Shown piece after piece: positions 1 through 40,548 of a stretch of 45,526 nucleotides of DNA. Where the stretch lies: contig JAUVQZ010000002.1 in NCBI GenBank assembly GCA_030597865.1, positions 1-45,526 of the forward strand, given 5' to 3'. This stretch comes from Pseudomonadota bacterium (lineage in GTDB: Bacteria > Desulfobacterota > Desulfobulbia > Desulfobulbales > SURF-16). Numbering within the stretch: the stretch's first letter is position 1; each line of letters opens with the position of its first letter. Both the position numbers and the translations under genes were made by a program. The notes beneath the pieces are model-generated. The model saw only the letters and a program-made list of their open reading frames with translations, was not told the DNA's origin and made no database searches.

Positions 1-367
1 CCTCCCGTAGGAGTCTGGTCCGTGTTCCAGTTCCAGTGTGGCGGATCATCCTCTCAGACCCGCTAACCATCGTAGCCTTGGTAGGCTCTTACCCCACCAA
101 CTAGCTAATGGTACGCAAACTCATCCAAATGCGATAGCTTCCAAGGAGAGGCCATCTTTCTTCACTTTATCTTGCGATTAAGTGAACGTATCAGGTATTA
201 GCTAACCTTTCGGTCAGTTATTCCAGACACCTGGGTAGATTATCTACGTGTTACTCACCCGTGCGCCACTTTAATAAGTTCTCCGAAGAAAACCGTTCTC
301 GTTCGACTTGCATGTGTTAAGCACGCCGCCAGCGTTCGTTCTGAGCCAGGATCAAACTCTCCAGTTT
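1..367 (-). rRNA. rrs: 16S ribosomal RNA, 5' portion only (gene continues past the left edge)
   Basis: The reverse complement of 341-360 is AGAGTTTGATCCTGGCTCAG (universal 27F site). The reverse complement of 1-14 is ACTCCTACGGGAGG (universal ~338-351 region). The 5' end is placed by E. coli numbering, +/-5 nt. Confidence 0.95.
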
Positions 368-21135: not shown

Positions 21136-21270
21136 AATCTCCCTAGAACTTAATTTTAATCCCCAGAAAAAATTCTTCACACACTGAGAACCTTATACAA
21201 GTGTCGGATGTTCCGGGATCCGGGTCAATTTTTTTCTCATCATGGGCGTGCAACCAGTCAGCAGGGGGAA

Positions 21271-22281
21271 TCAGCGGCTCAAGAACTCTTCCGCCTCATC
21301 AACATCGAGCTTGCTGCCGATAATGAGCGGCACCCGCTGATGGAGATCCTCCGGCTCAATATCAAGGATATTGCGGCCATCATCGGTGATGGCCCGGCCG
21401 CCAGCCTGCTCAATGAGCATGGCCAGGGGAGAGGCCTCATAGAGCAGGCGCAATTTACCATGGGGTTTACTGGTATCCTTACTATCGCGGGGATAGGCAA
21501 AGATACCACCGGTGATCAGGTTGCGATGGAAATCAGCCACCAGGGAACCAATATACCTGGAGCTGTATGGCCGCCCCTTGCCCTTGTCCGGCTGGTTGAT
21601 CATCTCAAAAAACGCCCTGACGTTGTCCTGCCAAAAGGGCTGATTATAGCTGTTGACACTGACATACCTGGCCCGCTCAGAGGTTCTGATATCGGCATGG
21701 GAGAGATAAAACTCCCCGACACTGGGGTCCAGGGTAAAGCCATGGACACCGTCACCGGTGGTGAAAACCAGCATGGTGGACGAGCCATACAGGATGTAGC
21801 CTGCCGCCACCTGCTCACGGCCGGCCTGGAGCAGGTCGCCTATATCGCCCTGCCCCTCCTTGGAGAGACGGCGGTGGACGGAAAAGATGGTGCCGATGCT
21901 GACATTGACATCAATATTGGAAGAACCGTCCAGAGGATCAAAGGCCAGGGTATATTTGCCCTCATAGCCCTCCTCCACCGGGATAATGTCGTCCTCCTCC
22001 TCGGAGGTCATCACGCAGAGATAGCCGGAACGGGCCATCCTTCTTACAATGGTGCGATTGGCAAACTCATCCAGCTTCTGGACCTCTTCGCCCTGGATAT
22101 TCGTCTTACCGGACATGCCGAGGATATCAGCAAGGCCGGCCATATTCACCTCGGCGGAGATAGTCTTACCGGCAACAATGAGCTCATTGAGCAGGCCGGA
22201 AAGATCACCTGTGGCCTCTGGATGCAGGCGTTGACTATCAACAATATGTCTATGGACAGTTACTCCAAGTGGTCTTCTCAT
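21271..22281 (-). CDS. fbp: class 1 fructose-1,6-bisphosphatase
   Basis: The 336-aa ORF contains ...GEEVQKLDEFAN..., SEEEDD, FDPLDGSSNIDVN, GSSTMLV and YPRDSKDTSKPHGKLRLLYEASPLA. Confidence 0.95.
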   Translation of the reverse strand: MRRPLGVTVHRHIVDSQRLHPEATGDLSGLLNELIVAGKTISAEVNMAGLADILGMSGKTNIQGEEVQKLDEFANRTIVRRMARSGYLCVMTSEEEDDIIPVEEGYEGKYTLAFDPLDGSSNIDVNVSIGTIFSVHRRLSKEGQGDIGDLLQAGREQVAAGYILYGSSTMLVFTTGDGVHGFTLDPSVGEFYLSHADIRTSERARYVSVNSYNQPFWQDNVRAFFEMINQPDKGKGRPYSSRYIGSLVADFHRNLITGGIFAYPRDSKDTSKPHGKLRLLYEASPLAMLIEQAGGRAITDDGRNILDIEPEDLHQRVPLIIGSKLDVDEAEEFLSR

Positions 22282-22507
22282 CTACGTTCTATCTCCATCT
22301 TCTCATCCGAATAAATCTTCAAGGCCATACCAAGGGCCAACCATTGCTGCAAAAACCCGCCAGGGCATACGGGTGGCCATGACCAAAACACCTATTAGCT
22401 TCCTGTGACACCCTATTGAAATCACTAAAAGTTCCCTGTGCAACTACTTTTTTGTTTTAACAGTTTTTCAAAGAAGTGACAAAGCTGTAGAATGTCAGAA
22501 TACCATC

Positions 22508-23809
22508 ATGATCAGAGACCCCGAGCCCAAAAAAAAATCAACCAAGCATCTGCCCGCCGGTGATGTGCGCAGTTATGTCAGGGTGCTGCGCCGCAACCCC
22601 CACTTTAGGCGTCTCTGGCTTGCCGGGGTTATCAGCCATATCGGCAACTGGTTTAACTATATCGGCATCTTTGTCCTGTTAAACGAATACACCGGTTCCG
22701 GGCAGGCGGTGAGCTGGTTTCTCATTGCCAAGTTCTTGCCCTCTTTTCTATGGGGACCGGTTGCCGGCGTCATTGCTGACCGCTTGCCGCGCAAGATGAT
22801 CATGATTGCCGGTGATCTTAGCCGGGCCCTCATTGTGCTCGGTTTTCTCTATGTTGATGATGCCAGCCGCCTCTGGCTCATCTATGTCCTGGCCCTGGCC
22901 CAGGAAACCGTCTGGACATTCACGGATCCGGCCCGGCGGGCCTCCATCCCCAATCTCTGTGCCAGGGAGGAGCTCAAGGTTGCCAATAGCCTCAACGGCG
23001 CAACCTGGTCTGTTATGCTGGGGGTGGGAGCTGCCCTGGGGGGCTATGTTTCCGCCCGTTTTGGCTGGCAGACCGCTATTATTGTCGATGCGGCAACCTT
23101 TATTGTTTCGGCCGCCCTGTTGACCGCCCTGCCCCTGCCCCACCGGCCCCGGGAGAAACAACCGGTAAAAACATGGTCAACCATGCTGGGCCTCACCGAC
23201 CTCAAGGAGGGCTGGAGTTACATTATCCACCACCCAAAGACAGCCCGCCTCATGCTGGTGAAAAGCGGCTGGGCCATGGCCGGTGGTATTTTGGTCATGC
23301 TCACCATTTTTGGCGAACAAATTTTCGGGGGGGAGGGCGGCGGCAAGAGCGGCGTGCTCTACTCAGCGCGTGGCGCCGGCGCCGCCCTTGGCCCTTTAAT
23401 GGCCTGGAATATATTTGGCGAGGAAAAAAAAGATATGACACGGGCCATCGGCTTTGGCTTCTTCATGGCTGCCGCATCCTATCTCTGCTTCAGCCAGGCC
23501 ACCTCACTCTGGCTGGCAGCGCTCTTTGTCTTCTCTGCCCATCTTGGCGGCTCCGTCCAATGGGTCTTCTCAACAACACTGCTGCAGGAGATGGTGGAAG
23601 ACCGCTTCCGGGGCCGTGTTTTCGCAGCGGAGATGGCTCTTGTCACCCTGATTCTGTCCATCTCCACCTGGTTCACCGGCTTTGTCCTTGACCTGGGGGT
23701 GGCGCCCCGTCTGGTCACTGCCGGGCTGGCAACCTGCTTTCTCCTGCCCGGCCTGGTCTGGAGCCTGTCCGAACGCCGTCAATCAGAAGATCCATCAAAA
23801 AAGCAGTAG
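22508..23809 (+). CDS. MFS transporter
   Basis: The 433-aa ORF has about 12 hydrophobic segments and a GVIADRLPRK loop motif. Its 3' end overlaps the convergent maturase gene by 31 nt. Confidence 0.85.
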   Translation: MIRDPEPKKKSTKHLPAGDVRSYVRVLRRNPHFRRLWLAGVISHIGNWFNYIGIFVLLNEYTGSGQAVSWFLIAKFLPSFLWGPVAGVIADRLPRKMIMIAGDLSRALIVLGFLYVDDASRLWLIYVLALAQETVWTFTDPARRASIPNLCAREELKVANSLNGATWSVMLGVGAALGGYVSARFGWQTAIIVDAATFIVSAALLTALPLPHRPREKQPVKTWSTMLGLTDLKEGWSYIIHHPKTARLMLVKSGWAMAGGILVMLTIFGEQIFGGEGGGKSGVLYSARGAGAALGPLMAWNIFGEEKKDMTRAIGFGFFMAAASYLCFSQATSLWLAALFVFSAHLGGSVQWVFSTTLLQEMVEDRFRGRVFAAEMALVTLILSISTWFTGFVLDLGVAPRLVTAGLATCFLLPGLVWSLSERRQSEDPSKKQ

Positions 23810-25365
23810 GGATCCTTCTCAGTAAAGACATCCAGGCCCATGCCATGGCTTACGGCCAGGCAACCGCCACAGACAGCCCGTATTTTACAGTCATTGCAGG
23901 CCTGGGATCCTGCCCGGTATTTGCGGGCCGCCTCAGAGTGATAGATCTCCGACAGGGTGCTTTCACAGGTATTACCGATGTGGGACGGAAACTTACGGCA
24001 GGCATGGACCTCGCCCTCGGCCAGAAGCGACAGAAAATTGAAGGCCGCCCCACAGCCATAGCCCGTACAACCGCCAAACAGCTCCCTGCCATCTTTGGCA
24101 AACAAGGTGTTTAGATGATTGTCCTTGAGCCCCATACAGGGATTGGCCAGGGAGGCCTCATAATAGCGACGCAGGAACCCCCCATAGCCCTTGGTGGGCG
24201 CCGACAGGAGCTGGGCACCTTCGCCCACCATGGCCAGCCGATTGAAATTAAAGAGATCAACCTTGCCCCTGAGAACCTCGGCCAGGGGCAAAACCTGCTC
24301 CTGGTTCTCCCTGGTCAGGGTCAGCATGACCATGGAATAGATGCCCAGGTCCTTTAAAATGGCCAGAAACTCGATGGTCCGTCTAAAATGACCGGCACCA
24401 CGGATATGGTCATTATGCTCGGAAAGACCCTCCAGGCTGACCTGGTAAAATTCAAGGGGCTGGATGGCCTGCAACTCCTCAAGGCTCTCCCTTGGCGCAG
24501 GATTACCAAGAATCGCCAACTGAAAACCACGGGCAGAGGCGGCCTGGTAGAGTTCGCTAAAACGGGGATAGAGCAAAGGATTGCCACCGGTAAAGGTCAC
24601 CTGACCATAGACATGGTGCTCCCGGCAGAAGGCCCGGAAATCATCAAGAATGGTGAGTGCCTGGTCATATGCGACGGCCGTGCGGCTCGTCCGGTCGTAG
24701 CAATGTTTGCAGTGGAGATCACAGGCCTGGGTAATATGCCATTGCAGGGTAAAGGCCGATGAGGAGAGATACCTCTTGGCCGTGACATCATTTGCCTTAA
24801 AAACAGAGGGATCCCGGCGGATGGTGGTTTCCGGGACCAGGATGTACTCCTCGTCTTCAGCCCGTTCCAGGATACGGTCCAGATAGGCCAGGGTCACCCC
24901 ATGCTCGACAGCCGCCTGGGCCAGGTCAACATCCTCTTCAACAAGCTTTAAGGCCAGAAGATCCTGGGGGCCGGCATTTTTATAGCGCACCGCGCCACTG
25001 GCAAGGCGCCAGACCAATACCAGCTGTTCGCCCGGCCTGCCCTCCTCATCCCGGCCGGCCAGGATGGGGGCAAGATTCTGCCAGGGAAACTGGGCAAGTC
25101 GAAGGGTGGGATTAACAATGCCCCTTTCAACAGGGGGGGCCGGATCCACCTCAAGCCGTTCCACCTCCGCCACCAGCTCCTCAAGGCGGGCAAGATCGGG
25201 GAGAAAGGGGGGCAGGTGGAAATCTTTCACATGGCTGGCCAACCAGTCGGCCATGCCAAGGGATGGCCGCTTATCATTGGCCCGGAGGGATTGGGCAAGA
25301 ATTGCCTGGGAACGTGGGTAATCGGAAATCATCTCTATGGGTACCACCTGGATCTGATCCTTCAA
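23779..25365 (-). CDS. sbtM: radical SAM/SPASM-domain peptide maturase, SbtM-like (thio(seleno)oxazole-forming family)
   Basis: The sequence has a CDLHCKHCY (CxxxCxxC) SAM cluster and a Cys-rich SPASM C-terminus (CGGCTGYGCG...CRKF...CNDCKIRAVCGGC). A ~200-aa N-terminal extension precedes the radical SAM core. The gene lies directly downstream of a Sec-encoding peptide gene. The start is uncertain among TTG 25365, GTG 25347 and ATG 25332, because a terminator T-run abuts 25365. Confidence 0.78.
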   Translation of the reverse strand: MKDQIQVVPIEMISDYPRSQAILAQSLRANDKRPSLGMADWLASHVKDFHLPPFLPDLARLEELVAEVERLEVDPAPPVERGIVNPTLRLAQFPWQNLAPILAGRDEEGRPGEQLVLVWRLASGAVRYKNAGPQDLLALKLVEEDVDLAQAAVEHGVTLAYLDRILERAEDEEYILVPETTIRRDPSVFKANDVTAKRYLSSSAFTLQWHITQACDLHCKHCYDRTSRTAVAYDQALTILDDFRAFCREHHVYGQVTFTGGNPLLYPRFSELYQAASARGFQLAILGNPAPRESLEELQAIQPLEFYQVSLEGLSEHNDHIRGAGHFRRTIEFLAILKDLGIYSMVMLTLTRENQEQVLPLAEVLRGKVDLFNFNRLAMVGEGAQLLSAPTKGYGGFLRRYYEASLANPCMGLKDNHLNTLFAKDGRELFGGCTGYGCGAAFNFLSLLAEGEVHACRKFPSHIGNTCESTLSEIYHSEAARKYRAGSQACNDCKIRAVCGGCLAVSHGMGLDVFTEKDPYCFFDGSSD

Positions 25366-25367
25366 CG

Positions 25368-25407
25368 ATAAAAAAAATCGGGTTTACCGCCAGCTCCGGT
25401 AAACCCG
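25368..25407 (-). terminator. intrinsic terminator/attenuator between the precursor-peptide gene and the maturase gene
   Basis: On the minus strand, CGGGTTTACC (25407-25398) pairs with GGTAAACCCG (25388-25379) across a 9-nt loop. ATTTTTTTTAT (25378-25368) follows. Confidence 0.7.
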
Positions 25408-25478
25408 ATACAAATCATGAAGGTGCAACCTGCACCTTGCAGTAGAAATCCTGTCGGCAATGGCTGCCAGAAAGACTC

Positions 25479-25847
25479 CTACTTTTGGCTGCCTCAGCTG
25501 GAACCTGCAGCACCCTTCTTTTTCTCGACACTCCCGGTGTCGGGATGGGCGCCTCAGCTTGAGCCTGCTGCATCTTTTTTCTTTTCGACACTCCCGGTGT
25601 CGCCTTTTGTACCACCTCAGCTGGAGGCGGCTGGATCAGCCTTTTTATCAGTGCTCACGGCACTGTCTTTTGTCCCGCCTCAGCTGGATCCTGTCTGATG
25701 CTGCCCCTTGTCGGCGCCACCTGCGCCGGTTTTAGGAGGGCCTCAACTACTACCTGCATGGGCCCCGGGAACAGCAACTCCTGCTCCGGCAATGAGTCCG
25801 GCCAGACCGAACCGTGCCAAAGTTTTCTTGAGTTCCTTGACTTCCAC
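25479..25847 (-). CDS. tandem-repeat peptide with five in-frame UGA (selenocysteine) codons; SbtA-like RiPP precursor candidate
   Basis: GTG 25847 lies 6 nt after GGAGGAGG (25861-25854). The frame reads MEVKELKKTLARFGLAGLIAGAGVAVPGAHAGSS U GPPKTGAGGADKGQHQTGSS U GGTKDSAVSTDKKADPAASS U GGTKGDTGSVEKKKDAAGSS U GAHPDTGSVEKKKGAAGSS U GSQK, then TAG (25481-25479). The TGA codons are at 25745-25743, 25682-25680, 25619-25617, 25556-25554 and 25496-25494. The first four each have a downstream SECIS-like hairpin. If the fifth TGA is the true stop, the CDS is 25494..25847. Confidence 0.72.
25526..25542 (-). promoter_or_regulatory. SECIS-like hairpin 4
   Basis: Minus-strand CGACAC-CGGGA-GUGUCG begins 11 nt after UGA 4. 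Confidence 0.65.
25586..25602 (-). promoter_or_regulatory. SECIS-like hairpin 3
   Basis: Minus-strand CGACAC-CGGGA-GUGUCG begins 14 nt after UGA 3. Confidence 0.65.
25649..25665 (-). promoter_or_regulatory. SECIS-like hairpin 2
   Basis: Minus-strand CAGUGC-CGUGA-GCACUG begins 14 nt after UGA 2. Confidence 0.65.
25712..25728 (-). promoter_or_regulatory. SECIS-like hairpin 1
   Basis: Minus-strand CGGCGC-AGGUG-GCGCCG begins 14 nt after UGA 1. Confidence 0.65.
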
Positions 25848-25985
25848 GACGTTCCTCCTCCACAAAGGATTTTGTGAGATGCAGAGATTGCAGGGAAACA
25901 ACCTCCACCCATGGTGACAGAAATCAGTATGTCATAACCCATCAGCTTTTTCCACCTGCTTTTATGAACAGATAGAATTTTCCTA

Positions 25986-35046: not shown

Positions 35047-36151
35047 ATGTCAGCAGAACTCCAACAGAAACTCCAAGGCTACAAAGACCGCCTTCTCACC
35101 TTACAGGTGCATCTTTGACCTAGCCGGCAAACAAGGACAGCTTGCCGAGCTTGAACACCAGACCATGAACCCGGACTTCTGGAATGATCCGGACAAGGCC
35201 CGCCAGACCCAGATTGCCATTGGCCGTCTGCAGGACCCCATTGATGGCTGGCAGGGCTGCTACGACATAGTTGAGGATGCGGAAATACTCCTTGAGCTAG
35301 CCCGTGAGGAGAAGGACGCCGATACCGAGCAGGAGGCTGGCGAGACCATTGCCTCCCTTGAAAAACGCCTGGAAGATTTTGAGCTTGAATGCATGTTCAG
35401 CGGTGAGCATGACAACAGCAATGCCATGCTCACCATCCATGCCGGTGCCGGCGGCACCGAGGCCCAGGACTGGACCGATATGCTGCTGCGCATGTTCCTG
35501 CGCTGGTGCGAGAAGAAAAATTTCCAAACCGATATTCTTGACCTGCAGCCCGGCGATGAGGCAGGGGTCAAGAGTGTCACCCTGATGATCAAGGGCAAGT
35601 ATGTCTACGGCTATCTGCGCTCCGAGGTGGGTATCCACCGCCTGGTCCGCATCTCCCCCTTTGACACCAGTGGCCGCCGCCACACCTCCTTTGCCTCGGC
35701 CTTTGTCTTTCCAGAACTTGACGACGACATTGAGGTGGAAATTATCGACAAGGACCTACGTGTCGATACCTACCGGGCCAGCGGCGCCGGGGGCCAGCAT
35801 ATCAACAAGACAAGCTCAGCAATCCGCATCACCCATATCCCCACCAATATTGTCGTCCAATGCCAGAATGAGCGTTCCCAGCATCGCAACAAGGAGACGG
35901 CCATGAAGATGCTCAAGACCCGCCTCTATGAACGGGAACAGGAGCTGCAGAGGGAACAGCATGAGGTCATTGGTGGAGAGAAAAAAGAGATCGCCTGGGG
36001 CAGCCAGATCCGCTCCTATACCATGCAACCCTATCGCCTGGTCAAGGACCACCGCACCAATCAGGAGAGCGGTAATGTCGAGGCGGTCATGGATGGTGAT
36101 CTCGACCCCTTTATCAAGGCCTACCTCCTATGGCAGGGCAACAACAAATAG
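35047..36151 (+). CDS. prfB: peptide chain release factor 2, programmed +1 frameshift (join 35047..35115, 35117..36151)
   Basis: Frame 0 reads MSAELQQKLQGYKDRLLTLQVHL and then meets CTT-TGA-C (35113-35119), with SD-like AGGTG 3 nt upstream. The +1 frame continues DLAGKQGQLAELE...SPF...GGQH(I)NKT (SPF and GGQ motifs). Confidence 0.93.
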
Positions 36152-37410: not shown

Positions 37411-38262
37411 ATGAAACTACACAGGCATATCATTGTTACCCTTATCGCCCTCTATTTGCCGGCATCGGCCCTGGCGGCCATTGACTGGTCTGTTGACCAA
37501 AGCATTGAGACCAAGGCTAGCATCAAGCACATGGCCCCATCCTTTGACGGCAACAGCCTCTTTGTCCTCACCGGCACCAACGAGCTTGTCATGTATGATG
37601 CCTCAGGAAAGGCCCTGGGAAGCATGAAGGTTGATCCAGGCATGGACCAGATCCACCTGAGCGGTTTTCAAAAGGCCGGCGTTCCTGAACAGATCTTTGT
37701 GGCAAACTCGGCCACCGGCCAGATCCAGAGGCTCTCCTTCAGCCTGGTGGCCAAGATTGACCTCAGCGGCAGCCCGTTCCTCGGCAATGCTGACGCCCCG
37801 GTTGCCCTGGTGGTGTACAGCGACTTTCAATGACCCCACTGCGCCCAGGCAGGGGCGTTACTCGAGCAGGTGCTCGAGCAAAATCCAGACACCGTAAAAA
37901 TCGTCTTCAAACATTTCCCCCTGAGCTTTCACAAACAGGCCCCAGCCGCAGCCCAGGCAGCTATTGCTGCCCATAAACAGGGGAAATTCTGGCAGTACCA
38001 CGATCTGCTCTACGAAAACCATAAGACCCTGACCGCTCAAAGCTATGAAGGCCTTGCCACCGAGCTTGGTCTTGACCTGACCACCTTTAACCGTGACCGC
38101 ACGAGCCCCCAAACCCGTCAGCAGATGAGCGCTGACATCAATGGCGGTAAACAGGCAGGTGTCACCGGCACCCCGGCCATATTTGTCAATGGCCACCGCC
38201 TGAAAAAACGGACCCTGCAGGACATCCAGGCAATGATTGACGCGAAACTCAAAAAACCCTGA
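37411..38262 (+). CDS. DsbA-family thiol:disulfide oxidoreductase selenoprotein (U-P-H-C active site; TGA 37831-37833 read as Sec)
   Basis: Track ORFs 37411..37833 and 37870..38262 are in the same frame and are separated only by one TGA. Read-through gives ...VALVVYSDFQ-U-PHCAQAG...VKIVFKHFPLSFHKQA...GKFWQYHD...GVTGTPAIFVNG. This is a DsbA fold with Sec replacing the first Cys of CPHC. Hairpins lie downstream at 37841-37858 and 37861-37878. Confidence 0.78.
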
Positions 38263-39381: not shown

Positions 39382-39828
39382 ATGCCCGTTCTGCTGAGCA
39401 ATAGGTACGGCGGCCCCTGCCATATCTGCCTTGACCTCTTTATCAAAAGGGCCGAAGAACTTCTTTGCCTGGCTGGGCTGGAAGGCCACGAACTCTCCCT
39501 GCTGCTCCTTGATGATCCGGCCATGCAGGAAATAAACAGGCAGTGGCGCCAAAAGGATAAGGCCACCAATGTCCTCTCCTTTCCCCAAGGCCTTGATGAT
39601 GATTTTGATCAGCACCCCATGCTCGGCGATATCATCATTTCCATTGACACGGCCCATCAAGAGGCAATTGATAGGGGCATCTCCCTCCACCACCATCTGA
39701 CCACCCTGCTGGTCCATGGTTTTGTTCATCTGCTGGGCCATGACCATGAGCGCTCAGACCACGATGCCGAGGAGATGTTTGGCCTCGAACACTCTTACTT
39801 ACAAGCACTAGCAACAAGGAGAACAAAG
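39382..39828 (+). CDS. ybeY: rRNA maturation endoribonuclease YbeY (no stop codon of its own; the frame continues into pdxJ)
   Basis: The zinc motif [12 protein letters not shown] is present. The ATG lies 2 nt after the phoH stop. Confidence 0.8.
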
Positions 39829-40548
39829 ATGGTTAAACTCGCCATAAATGTTGACCACGTAGCCACCCTGCGTCAGGCCCGTGGCAACACAGAACCAGAC
39901 CCGGTCACGGCCGCCGCCATTGCCGAGCTTGCCGGGGCCACTGGCATTGTTGTGCATCTCCGGGAGGACAGGCGCCATATGCAGGACCGTGATATCGACA
40001 TCCTGCGCAAGACCGTACAGACCAAGCTCAACCTGGAAATGGCAGCGGCTGAAGAGATTATTAAGATCGCCCTGGACCTGCAACCGGACATGGTCACCCT
40101 GGTTCCGGAAAAACGACAGGAGCTGACCACCGAGGGCGGCCTTGACGTGGCGGGTCAGATAAAAAAACTCAAAAAGGTTATTGCCAGGCTGGCCAAAAAG
40201 AATATTCCGGTGAGCCTCTTTATCGACCCTGACCCGGCCCAGATCCAGGCCTCAAAAGAGGTGGGCGCCACCTTTGTGGAGATCCACACCGGCCGCTATG
40301 CCGATGCCAGCAGCGAGGAGGAGGAGGATAAGGAGTTTGAGCTCATTGCAACGGCAGCCGAAGAGGCCTATGAAGCAGGTCTGCGGGTTTATGCCGGTCA
40401 CGGTCTCAACTATGTCAATGCCGGCCGGGTGGCAGCCCTGCCCACCATTGAGGAACTTTCCATCGGCCATGCTGTCATGGCCCGGGCAATCTTCACCGGC
40501 CTTGACCAGGCTGTCCGCGAGATGGTGGATATCTGCCGGTTCGCCTAA
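39829..40548 (+). CDS. pdxJ: pyridoxine 5'-phosphate synthase
   Basis: ATG 39829 lies 8 nt after AAGGAG and gives [19 protein letters not shown]...[10 protein letters not shown]...VEIHTG...HGLNY. Confidence 0.9.

Follow-up and report, generated by a model that had tools for sequence, protein, structure and literature searches.

The stretch of DNA that we analyzed, hereafter the window, is 45,526 nucleotides long and carries on its minus strand a short gene with five in-frame UGA codons, followed by a gene for a radical SAM enzyme. We refer to the two genes as sbtA and sbtM, and the main features of the locus are as follows.

25854..25861, minus strand: Shine-Dalgarno sequence GGAGGAGG, 6 nt from the GTG
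25479..25847, minus strand: sbtA coding sequence, 122 residues with five predicted selenocysteines, GTG start and TAG stop
25755..25847, minus strand: leader (residues 1-31, of which 1-27 match TIGR04081), doubling as a putative Sec-type signal peptide
25743..25745, minus strand: UGA 1 (Sec35), in the context GSS-U-GP; TGA in 5/5 close orthologues
25680..25682, minus strand: UGA 2 (Sec56); GGA (Gly) at the equivalent site in locus L005
25617..25619, minus strand: UGA 3 (Sec77); GGA (Gly) at the equivalent site in locus L004
25554..25556, minus strand: UGA 4 (Sec98), within an extra repeat unit absent from the closest relatives
25494..25496, minus strand: UGA 5 (Sec118), with the TAG stop four codons on
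25370..25409, minus strand: intrinsic terminator or attenuator in the sbtA-sbtM spacer, a 13-14 bp stem plus a T run
23779..25365, minus strand: sbtM, a radical SAM/SPASM thio(seleno)oxazole maturase (TIGR04082, 684.9 bits; cutoff 350)

The sbtA frame runs from the GTG start codon at 25847-25845 to a terminal TAG at 25481-25479 and translates as VEVKELKKTLARFGLAGLIAGAGVAVPGAHAGSS-stop-GPPKTGAGGADKGQHQTGSS-stop-GGTKDSAVSTDKKADPAASS-stop-GGTKGDTGSVEKKKDAAGSS-stop-GAHPDTGSVEKKKGAAGSS-stop-GSQK-stop. The internal stops are TGA codons that begin at 25745, 25682, 25619, 25556 and 25496 (spacing 63, 63, 63 and 60 nt), share the context AG(C/T)-TGA-GG and correspond to predicted residues U35, U56, U77, U98 and U118. 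This frame contains zero TAA or TAG codons before its terminal stop; frame 3 has two of each and frame 2 has none. As the longest UGA-free stretch is only 34 codons, the gene is invisible to standard gene finders. A repeat search recovered five copies of a TGA-containing 17-nt core at the UGA spacing (family D1) and identified the repeat unit of UGA 4 as a 57-nt duplicate with 82% identity (family D2); this unit is an insertion of 60 nt relative to L002, L004, L005 and L007 and of 57 nt relative to L003. Tandem Repeats Finder did not detect the 63-nt period of sbtA, which the separate repeat search did detect, because the units are too diverged. A GGAGG-type Shine-Dalgarno sequence is kept in most close orthologues, with GGTGG in L005. 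We rejected an upstream TTG at 25901 as the start codon, since orthologues keep the GTG together with its Shine-Dalgarno sequence and the model aligns from residue 1 onward. An earlier note on this DNA had claimed a single open frame from a GTG through five TGAs to a TAG, with an SbtM-like gene on the same strand after a 113-nt gap; all of its sequence statements were re-derived, and the neighboring gene, which starts at 25365, 113 nt on, is sbtM.

UGA is also an ordinary stop codon in this organism, as had been argued: prfB is present with a CTT-TGA-C site in frame at 35113, and TGA terminates 4 of the 15 annotated genes (sbtM, a glycosyltransferase gene, birA and fbp). The second selenoprotein gene that had been proposed for the window is likewise there, encoding a UPHC thioredoxin-like protein with a TGA at 37831 in a UxxC motif and a hairpin whose AGGU loop starts 34 nt after the UGA (57-nt fold z = -3.5). 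None of selA, selB, selC and selD lies within the 45.5-kb window, which holds no tRNA gene, and no tRNA-Sec was found; for the presence of these genes in the genome, the UxxC gene and its hairpin give indirect support.

The SbtA precursor model to which the earlier note had pointed, NCBIfam TIGR04081, matched SbtA residues 1-27 (model positions 1-27) at 36.7 bits against a cutoff of 30.5, and a protein database search with the peptide in which U was replaced by C gave 226 candidates, none of them significant. We found the same leader adjoining SbtM in 61 loci from other species, with sbtA upstream of sbtM in nearly all of them and downstream in L011, L014 and L029. The closest SbtM is 85% identical, and the organism is a relative of Desulfurivibrionaceae/Desulfobulbales. 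Behind the leader, these loci contain between zero and five in-frame TGAs in the motif [GS][GS]-U-[GS]G; the window gene equals the highest count in this sample, and its five sites read S-S-U-G, the residue before selenocysteine being Ser rather than Gly.

The reading frame is maintained beyond the UGA codons across the family. In about 60 species it runs on to a TAG or TAA even though lengths differ, every indel after the first UGA is a multiple of 3, and substitutions in this region fall on codon positions 1, 2 and 3 at 11.9%, 9.2% and 22.6%. Cysteine occupies positions in the selenocysteine motif in L001 (4 U plus 3 C), L012, L023, L027, L030 (11 Cys) and L032, so that both the preserved frame and the Cys substitutions expected of orthologues were observed. 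The distance from one site to the next also differs with the residue, the median being 21 residues after a selenocysteine and 12, with a minimum of 6, after a cysteine. The pattern of the window gene, which recurs next to SbtM in these loci, is far beyond chance.

In line with the proposal that each UGA has its own recoding element, we identified the following hairpins, the loop positions of which are given relative to the UGA.

25712..25728, minus strand: SECIS-like hairpin 1, CGGCGC-AGGUG-GCGCCG; loop +20 nt; -12.1 kcal/mol
25649..25665, minus strand: SECIS-like hairpin 2, CAGUGC-CGUGA-GCACUG; loop +20 nt; -8.3 kcal/mol
25586..25602, minus strand: SECIS-like hairpin 3, CGACAC-CGGGA-GUGUCG; loop +20 nt; -7.9 kcal/mol
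25526..25542, minus strand: SECIS-like hairpin 4, CGACAC-CGGGA-GUGUCG; loop +17 nt; -8.1 kcal/mol
25441..25483, minus strand: SECIS-like hairpin 5, long stem-loop with loop GCCAU; +29 nt; -23.1 kcal/mol, z = -2.5
25420..25438, minus strand: orphan SECIS-like hairpin in the 3' UTR, AAGGUGCA-GGU-UGCACCUU

A SECIS-like hairpin of 5-6 bp thus lies downstream of all five sbtA UGAs, with loops starting at +20, +20, +20, +17 and +29 and a G at loop position 1 or 2. For bacterial SECIS elements, Zhang and Gladyshev (2005) reportedly placed the apical loop at ~16-37 nt from the UGA, with a G in its first positions, and the loops in the window agree with this description in both distance and sequence. 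The same geometry recurs across the family, where the loop typically begins 20 nt from the UGA (median; IQR 18-21), a G stands at loop position 1-2 at 128 of 147 sites, and the commonest loops are GGU, AGGUG and AGGUA. The best hairpin averaged -9.6 kcal/mol at 149 UGA sites and -3.8 kcal/mol at 29 Cys sites (p = 2.6e-11; these statistics include related sequences, so the p-values overstate independence), and UGA sites had a 48-nt fold z-score of -1.17, compared with -0.05 for Cys sites.

The individual hairpins differ in the evidence that they offer. Hairpin 5 straddles the TAG stop, extends into the 3' UTR and shows compensatory changes at five pairs among six orthologues. Hairpin 2 has one compensatory pair, U-A to C-G, that couples a synonymous Ser change with a Thr/Ala change, and the sequence of hairpin 3 is invariant among orthologues; both differ from the MFE fold of isolated 53-mers. 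Hairpin 4 is a copy of hairpin 3 and therefore adds no independent evidence. The common GGU motif is absent from the loops of hairpins 3 and 4 (CGGGA) and of hairpin 5 (GCCAU). The orphan hairpin has 8 bp and three compensatory pairs among six orthologues; at ~60 nt from the last UGA it is too far away to be a canonical SECIS element. A comparison of the window with the Rfam SECIS families gave zero matches, both at the gathering threshold and with E relaxed to 10.

The leader of SbtA does look like the signal peptide that had been suspected at its N-terminus, having a basic n-region, a Gly/Ala/Leu h-region and A-H-A, with a predicted signal peptidase I cut between A31 and G32. At the equivalent place, 29 of the 61 relatives have a lipobox (a PROSITE PS51257-type rule, [LVI][ASTVI][GAS]-C after the h-region), with the Cys mostly at position 29; these signal peptide and lipobox calls are pattern rules read from sequence rather than the output of a trained predictor. 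The window peptide has no lipobox and zero Cys, and the Cys29 of relatives could be an extra SbtM target instead of a lipidation site. The leader also contains a conserved [DE]LKKxLA motif. Its sequence suggests that SbtA is cleaved and exported.

SbtM combines Radical_SAM and SPASM domains with an N-terminal domain of ~190 residues that resembles HvfC/BufC partner proteins. The profile of this domain aligned with that of an MNIO partner protein, P0002 (hhalign 99.8%, E = 2.5e-29), which itself belongs to PF09836 (40.4 bits; cutoff 27.2) and whose gene neighbors one for an MNIO and one for a precursor that has a lipobox and repeats the motif xC[SG]G. A direct Pfam match of SbtM to NGO1945_C was sub-threshold only, PDB sequence searches with the SbtM N-terminal profile and with P0002 gave no meaningful match, and a single-sequence AlphaFold model of the domain (pLDDT 46) was too poor for use. 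In L081, the precursor of the MNIO cluster has a lipobox and looks much like Cys-type SbtAs. As the neighbor of sbtA encodes a radical SAM/SPASM enzyme and an MNIO (DUF692) gene is absent from the locus, we regard SbtA as an analogue, not a member, of the MNIO metallophores.

Little else accompanies the two genes. The terminator or attenuator between them is kept in L002 and L005, with one compensatory pair. The next gene past sbtM, on the other strand, encodes an MFS transporter; this gene could contribute to export, and most of the family does not share it. Neighborhood clustering of 81 loci found no conserved protease, transporter or other partner beside sbtAM and no neighbor gene conserved outside the close clade. 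We also considered the upstream glycosyltransferase, birA and acc genes as parts of the system and rejected them, as they are syntenic in the close clade only.

The gene, its family membership, the conservation of read-through, the SECIS-like hairpins and the domain homology were all computed here, and we consider it highly probable that sbtA encodes a selenocysteine-decoded substrate of SbtM. The fuller explanation, in which the region is sbtA and its precursor peptide is modified by the SbtM encoded downstream, we hold to be probable. Translation would begin at GTG 25847, and at each UGA a short hairpin, its loop 17-29 nt downstream, would recruit SelB with Sec-tRNA(Sec) such that selenocysteine is inserted and termination does not occur. 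That all five codons are recoded in this way is our inference, and efficiency may suffer when recoding has to succeed five times in a row. The product would be a 122-residue peptide built of ~21-residue units, each closing with G/A-S-S-Sec-Gly, and the unit length would be set by the room needed for one SECIS hairpin per UGA; relatives that encode Cys shorten their units to as few as 6 residues. The N-terminal domain of SbtM, homologous to the substrate-recruiting partners of MNIOs, would bind the precursor, and SbtM, if it follows its published chemistry, would then oxidize each selenocysteine and the carbonyl of the preceding residue to a 5-selenooxazole, each site becoming 4 Da lighter. Modification of Ser-Sec is an assumption, because the window motif is S-S-U-G and the published chemistry was on Gly-Cys/Sec (GGUG).

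Together, the signal-peptide or lipobox leader and the HvfC/BufC-like domain of SbtM suggest an exported, selenooxazole-containing peptide that binds metal. We give export through the Sec pathway an even chance; it would proceed without a dedicated protease or exporter, and the many lipobox-bearing relatives would be lipid-anchored. The likeliest role would be to bind soft metals, copper for example, outside the cytoplasm; the peptide would then be for anaerobic life, and with selenium, what the thiooxazole metallophores known as bufferins and oxazolins are elsewhere, although by that analogy alone a metallophore function for this peptide is somewhat doubtful. Tentatively, and with slightly more conviction than for that single function, we offer a joint reading in which SbtA peptides are Sec-pathway-exported, often lipid-anchored poly-selenooxazole metal binders and not bacteriocins with cytoplasmic leaders; in which they are the radical SAM counterpart of the O2-dependent bufferins and oxazolins, with a shared precursor layout and a homologous HvfC/BufC-type recognition module that SbtM carries fused to the enzyme; and in which five UGA/SECIS units are packed into 369 nt, the RNA element rather than the peptide dictating the repeat length.

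Two alternatives dispute that the UGAs are read as selenocysteine. Translation might end at the first UGA to yield a 34-residue peptide, the later repeats being non-coding hairpins, such as attenuators or a repeat element between sbtA and sbtM. UGA is a genuine stop in this organism, selenocysteine insertion is known to compete with termination, and hairpins 2 and 3 score as terminator-like on the opposite strand. Such a product would nevertheless be a signal peptide without cargo, and a truncated gene does not account for a frame that is open in about 60 species with in-frame indels and most variation at third positions, for Cys codons that replace UGA within the same motif, or for a hairpin geometry tied to the UGA at +20 nt, so we regard termination at this site as very unlikely. 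Still less credible is that a reassigned code or a suppressor tRNA makes UGA specify a standard amino acid (Cys, Trp or Gly). Gly codons (GGA) do replace UGA at single sites in L004 and L005, as Cys codons do in other species, but RF2 is present with a UGA-dependent autoregulatory frameshift, several housekeeping genes terminate with TGA, position-specific hairpins occur at UGA sites and are missing at Cys sites, and the family is catalogued among selenoprotein families (PMC13188914).

Two further alternatives accept the selenocysteines and assign the peptide another fate. The family has been labelled selenobacteriocin (PMC13188914), which would imply a classical RiPP whose cytoplasmic leader recruits SbtM and is removed by a protease before a dedicated transporter exports the antimicrobial. 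The conserved [DE]LKKxLA exceeds the needs of a signal peptide, and the MFS gene directly downstream of sbtM is of an efflux type and lies on the opposite strand. We consider this route unlikely, as no protease or transporter is conserved beside sbtAM in 81 loci, the leader has full signal-peptide anatomy with a lipobox at a fixed position in half of the family, the homologous MNIO systems are exported via the Sec pathway or as lipoproteins, and the long, Lys/Gly/Ser-rich, low-complexity core is unlike typical bacteriocins. Marginally less likely again is a secreted poly-selenocysteine protein with free selenols, serving as a redox buffer or, like selenoprotein P, as a selenium store or carrier, on which SbtM modification is partial or unrelated; in its favor are several selenocysteines in a flexible, low-complexity chain that is read as exported. 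SbtM products are also reported to be still iodoacetamide-reactive, so Se/S is exposed (PMC9204691). Against free selenols stand the strict pairing with SbtM across the family, a [GS]-U-[GS] motif that fits the documented SbtM target, and Cys-only members, which would be poor selenium carriers.

The architecture was not known to the earlier note as a described one. This does not hold for SbtA as such, which is a curated family; the count of five and the family-wide picture do go beyond the accessible literature. In a 2026 review, the SbtA family is entered with 2 Sec and prokaryotic selenoproteins reach 2-3 at most (PMC13188914), and five exceeds the numbers in published catalogues for any bacterial protein. 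The signal-peptide reading of the leader and the HvfC/BufC-like domain of SbtM are also new relative to that literature. As gene finders miss multi-UGA sbtA genes, SbtA cores are likely under-annotated. Five selenocysteines with their own hairpins would make a natural test bed for the serial recoding efficiency of bacterial ribosomes, and the family would also illustrate how a peptide repeat takes its period from an RNA element (21 residues for Sec, down to 6 for Cys). Through its leader and the SbtM domain, this orphan RiPP of selenium would be linked to copper chelators of the thiooxazole type, which are well studied, and the SbtA product would gain a concrete, testable function.

The closest known system is SbtA/SbtM of Geobacter lovleyi (Lewis et al. 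2021, summarized in PMC9204691), whose SbtM is reported to turn Sec/Cys into a 5-seleno(thio)oxazole that is 4 Da lighter and absorbs near 304-313 nm. Our locus resembles it in a leader that passes the SbtA model and an adjacent enzyme that passes the SbtM model, in the use of UGA with SECIS, in the small-residue-Sec-Gly motif and in the expectation of more than one Sec per precursor. It differs in having five Sec, where 'at least two' or '2' is reported, in reading S-S-U-G in place of the published GGUG or SGUG, and in forming a regular 21-residue tandem array. Vertebrate selenoprotein P is secreted, as is predicted for SbtA, and has many genetically encoded Sec, but it is unrelated in sequence, functions in selenium transport and has two 3' UTR SECIS elements that serve all of its UGAs, in contrast to the adjacent hairpin for each UGA in sbtA.

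The bufferins (BufA, with the MNIO BufB and the DUF2063 partner BufC) share with SbtA a precursor that has a Sec signal peptide (a putative one in SbtA) and no dedicated exporter, a recognition module homologous to the SbtM N-terminal domain, and the conversion of Cys-type residues to 5-thiooxazoles at -4 Da each, as in SbtM chemistry; they bind copper in the periplasm (PMC11626156), and as periplasmic copper chelators they are the basis on which we infer metal binding by SbtA. They differ in using an O2-dependent multinuclear iron oxidase rather than a radical SAM enzyme, in having the partner as a separate protein, and in being folded small Cys proteins rather than a Sec repeat array, and SbtA lies outside the bufferin family. 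The oxazolins or RiPP-lipoproteins, which include HvfABC and NedA/NedBC with repeated EGKCG motifs, resemble SbtA in their repeated short Cys-Gly motifs, each losing 4 Da, in an HvfC-type partner, and in leaders that are signal peptidase I or lipobox signal peptides, as the SbtA leaders are predicted to be (PMC13056109). Their chemistry is that of MNIOs and involves no selenium, whereas the window peptide pairs its five putative selenocysteines with a radical SAM enzyme and has an A-x-A site, not a lipobox.

The earlier note had proposed that a gene invisible to plain ORF tracks encodes a tandem-repeat precursor with five selenocysteines (Sec, U), upstream of an SbtM-like gene on the same strand. 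We re-read this gene, sbtA, from the sequence and found its signals and its neighbor as claimed:

25861-25854, minus strand: Shine-Dalgarno sequence of sbtA, GGAGGAGG, 6 nt before the GTG
25479-25847, minus strand: sbtA, GTG start at 25847, five in-frame TGAs, TAG stop at 25481-25479
23779-25365, minus strand: sbtM, directly downstream of sbtA after a 113-nt gap, 684.9 bits to the thio(seleno)oxazole maturase model NCBIfam TIGR04082 (cutoff 350), with Radical_SAM and SPASM domains

The TGAs begin at 25745, 25682, 25619, 25556 and 25496, all in one frame that contains no TAA or TAG ahead of the terminal stop (frame 3 has two of each, frame 2 neither), and a repeat search returned a 17-nt core around each of the five, spaced 63, 63, 63 and 60 nt apart. 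The ordinary ORF list holds only fragments of the gene. With C or X substituted for U, the first 27 residues of SbtA scored 36.7 bits against the SbtA precursor model, NCBIfam TIGR04081 (cutoff 30.5). As this alignment covers all 27 model positions beginning at residue 1, it fixes both the family assignment and the GTG start codon. These data confirm the sequence observation and support its interpretation as a Sec-containing SbtA precursor.

A comparative scan with SbtM, using one genome per species, returned 80 loci, with the closest homologues (79-85% identical) in Desulfurivibrionaceae, Desulfobulbaceae and other Thermodesulfobacteriota MAGs. When these loci were translated with TGA as U and only TAA or TAG as stops, a leader homologue adjoined SbtM in 61 of them, upstream in nearly all and downstream in loci L011, L014 and L029, and was followed by in-frame UGAs within a [GS][GS]-U-[GS]G motif.

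Sec residues per SbtA peptide
0 Sec: 4 loci
1 Sec: 11 loci
2 Sec: 13 loci
3 Sec: 22 loci
4 Sec: 9 loci
5 Sec: 2 loci (the window and L011)

Other species carry Cys codons in the same motif, as sought at the TGA positions: the L030 peptide has 11 Cys and no Sec, those of L012 and L032 are Cys-only, and that of L001 starts with four Sec units and continues with three Cys units. When the window is aligned with its five closest relatives, differences past the first UGA amount to 11.9%, 9.2% and 22.6% at codon positions 1, 2 and 3, and all indel lengths are divisible by three. The extra (fifth) unit of the window is itself an in-frame insertion of 60 nt (57 nt when compared with L003) and shares 82% identity with the neighboring unit. 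From these alignments, we conclude that sbtA is under coding selection across its UGAs, with the frame kept open in orthologues, and this excludes termination at the first UGA (residue 34) as the main outcome. Individual sites do vary among relatives: L004 has GGA (Gly) at site 3 and has lost the last UGA (TCA), and L005 has GGA (Gly) at site 2, followed by a hairpin carrying a mismatch; the frame stays open in both. L008 and L052 contain UGA pairs only 3 codons apart (SSUSSUS), so that a single downstream hairpin may serve both UGAs, or the second UGA may be the real stop.

Each UGA in the window is followed by a SECIS-like hairpin of 5-6 bp with a 5-nt loop, in line with the proposal that each has its own recoding element:

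Hairpin 1: loop AGGUG, starting at +20 after the UGA
Hairpin 2: loop CGUGA, starting at +20
Hairpin 3: loop CGGGA, starting at +20
Hairpin 4: loop CGGGA, starting at +17
Hairpin 5: loop GCCAU, starting at +29; spans the TAG stop and extends into the 3' UTR

Hairpins 3 and 4 duplicate each other, hairpins 2 and 3 differ from the MFE fold of their isolated 53-mers, and an Rfam search returned no SECIS model matching the window hairpins. We compared 149 UGA sites with 29 Cys-codon sites across the family. The best simple hairpin averaged -9.6 kcal/mol at UGA sites versus -3.8 kcal/mol at Cys sites (p = 2.6e-11, a value that overstates independence because the sites are phylogenetically related), and the z-score of the downstream 48 nt was -1.17 versus -0.05. 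At UGA sites the median distance to the loop start is 20 nt (IQR 18-21); the loops have G at position 1-2 in 128/147 hairpins and are most commonly GGU, AGGUG or AGGUA, reminiscent of the GGU-type loop that SelB binds in E. coli fdhF. The stems are supported by covariation in the aligned sequences: hairpin 5 has compensatory changes in five pairs (six sequences), and in hairpin 2 a synonymous Ser change and a Thr/Ala replacement together exchange a U-A pair for C-G. Given hairpins at UGA but not Cys sites and the wider spacing of Sec (median distance to the next site 21 residues, versus 12, minimum 6, from Cys sites), the RNA element appears to dictate the repeat period of sbtA. Two further structures lie between sbtA and sbtM:

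25420-25438, minus strand: orphan SECIS-like hairpin in the sbtA 3' UTR, 8 bp with a GGU loop, between the last SECIS and the terminator
25370-25409, minus strand: strong intrinsic terminator/attenuator, with counterparts in L002 (2951-2979) and L005 (2764-2796)

The orphan hairpin is conserved across six orthologues, among which 3 of its pairs show compensatory changes. Its distance from any UGA is too great for a canonical SECIS; it may be left over from a lost repeat or act as a regulatory element bound by SelB. The terminator is also conserved, with compensatory changes, and its position suggests more precursor transcript than enzyme transcript.

The remaining features bear on UGA usage and gene context:

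35047-36151, plus strand: prfB, 517.9 bits
37411-38262, plus strand: second candidate selenoprotein (Thioredoxin_4/DSBA, signal peptide), TGA at 37831, ending TGA TGA
37861-37878, plus strand: strong AGGU-loop hairpin of this gene; its loop starts 34 nt past the UGA, and the 57-nt fold has z = -3.5
21271-22281, minus strand: class 1 fructose-bisphosphatase gene (fbp), 458.6 bits
26849-32128, minus strand: acetyl-CoA-carboxylase-like cluster (accC, 748-residue fused carboxyltransferase alpha/beta, BCCP-like, birA), then a GT2 glycosyltransferase gene
39382-40548, plus strand: single uninterrupted ORF with YbeY at residues 34-145 and PdxJ at 150-385, possibly a gene fusion, or else two genes sharing a frame by chance
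1-367, minus strand: 5' portion of a bacterial 16S rRNA gene lying at the edge of the window (296.9 bits to Rfam RF00177)

UGA serves as an ordinary stop here, as the earlier note held. In prfB, the ATG at 35047 and 24 codons precede an in-frame CTT-TGA-C with an AGGTG Shine-Dalgarno-like sequence ahead of it, a classical +1 frameshift site, and TGA terminates sbtM, the glycosyltransferase gene, birA and fbp. The second proposed Sec recoding event likewise stands as a candidate: a UPHC redox motif begins with the residue encoded by TGA 37831, and the best NCBIfam match is NF041057, "thioredoxin-like (seleno)lipoprotein" (93.6 bits, under the cutoff of 190). A tRNA search within the 45,526-nt window found none. 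A longer plus-strand ORF at 21208-22314 (368 aa) was rejected as a shadow of fbp without a family match. The carboxylase-like cluster and GT2 gene lie upstream of sbtA on its strand; synteny with sbtA, for birA, the BCCP-like gene and the GT2 gene at least, is limited to the closest relatives (7 loci; accC and the carboxyltransferase gene fall outside the flanks compared). We do not count the cluster or the GT2 gene as members of the sbtAM system.

The SbtA leader has the predicted signal-peptide features described earlier: a basic n-region, a Gly/Ala/Leu h-region and A-H-A ahead of Gly32. A PROSITE-style lipobox occupies the equivalent position in 29/61 relatives, 22 of which have its Cys at residue 29. 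When all flanking ORFs from 81 loci were clustered, conservation was confined to the close clade, and no protease or transporter was conserved beside sbtAM, which fits export through the general Sec or lipoprotein pathway.

The SbtA family is already known and curated; its entry in a 2026 review reads "Selenobacteriocin, TIGR04081, SGUG, 2" (PMC13188914). The window gene is therefore no new architecture, contrary to the initial impression. The same review gives prokaryotic selenoproteins at most 2-3 Sec. Five Sec, which equals the maximum in our 61-species sample, multi-Sec tandem arrays with a SECIS-imposed period as the family norm, and a signal-peptide/lipobox leader paired with an HvfC/BufC-like SbtM domain all go beyond the literature consulted, and curators may know part of this. 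The locus is of interest for its record Sec count, its natural five-SECIS array and a testable functional tie to thiooxazole metallophores.

This tie comes from the ~200-residue N-terminal extension of SbtM, in which the homologous domain covers residues about 10-190 (roughly 24796-25338). A database search with the extension led to P0002, a 248-residue NCBI protein carrying PF09836 (DUF2063/HvfC_N; 40.4 bits, above cutoff). In BLASTP the two are 41% identical over the best-conserved SbtM motifs, LPPFLPDLARLE and VNPTL, and hhalign of a 21-sequence SbtM N-terminal profile matched P0002 over 179 columns (99.8% probability, E = 2.5e-29). In locus L081 (273-2144), the P0002 gene directly follows genes for an MNIO (PF05114) and a 74-residue precursor, which combines a lipobox-bearing signal peptide (LTLAGC) with repeats of an xC[SG]G motif, a layout shared with Cys-type SbtAs. 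In the consulted papers that mention SbtM together with DUF2063, SbtM serves for spectroscopic comparison. These profile matches indicate homology between the SbtM domain and MNIO partners of the HvfC/BufC type (DUF2063 plus RRE-like), so that two unrelated oxidases making the same heterocycle would share one recognition module.

BufC, with DUF2063 and an RRE-like C-terminal domain, is needed with the MNIO BufB for 5-thiooxazoles on bufferins, which have Sec signal peptides and chelate periplasmic copper (PMC11626156). MNIO RiPPs with a lipobox and repeated EGKCG motifs are lipidated (PMC13056109), and SbtM is described as converting Gly-Cys or Gly-Sec into a thio(seleno)oxazole by a 4-Da oxidation (PMC9204691). 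By analogy, SbtA/SbtM would be an anaerobic radical SAM counterpart of the MNIO thiooxazole systems, yielding a putatively exported poly-selenooxazole peptide whose most likely role would be the binding of soft metals.
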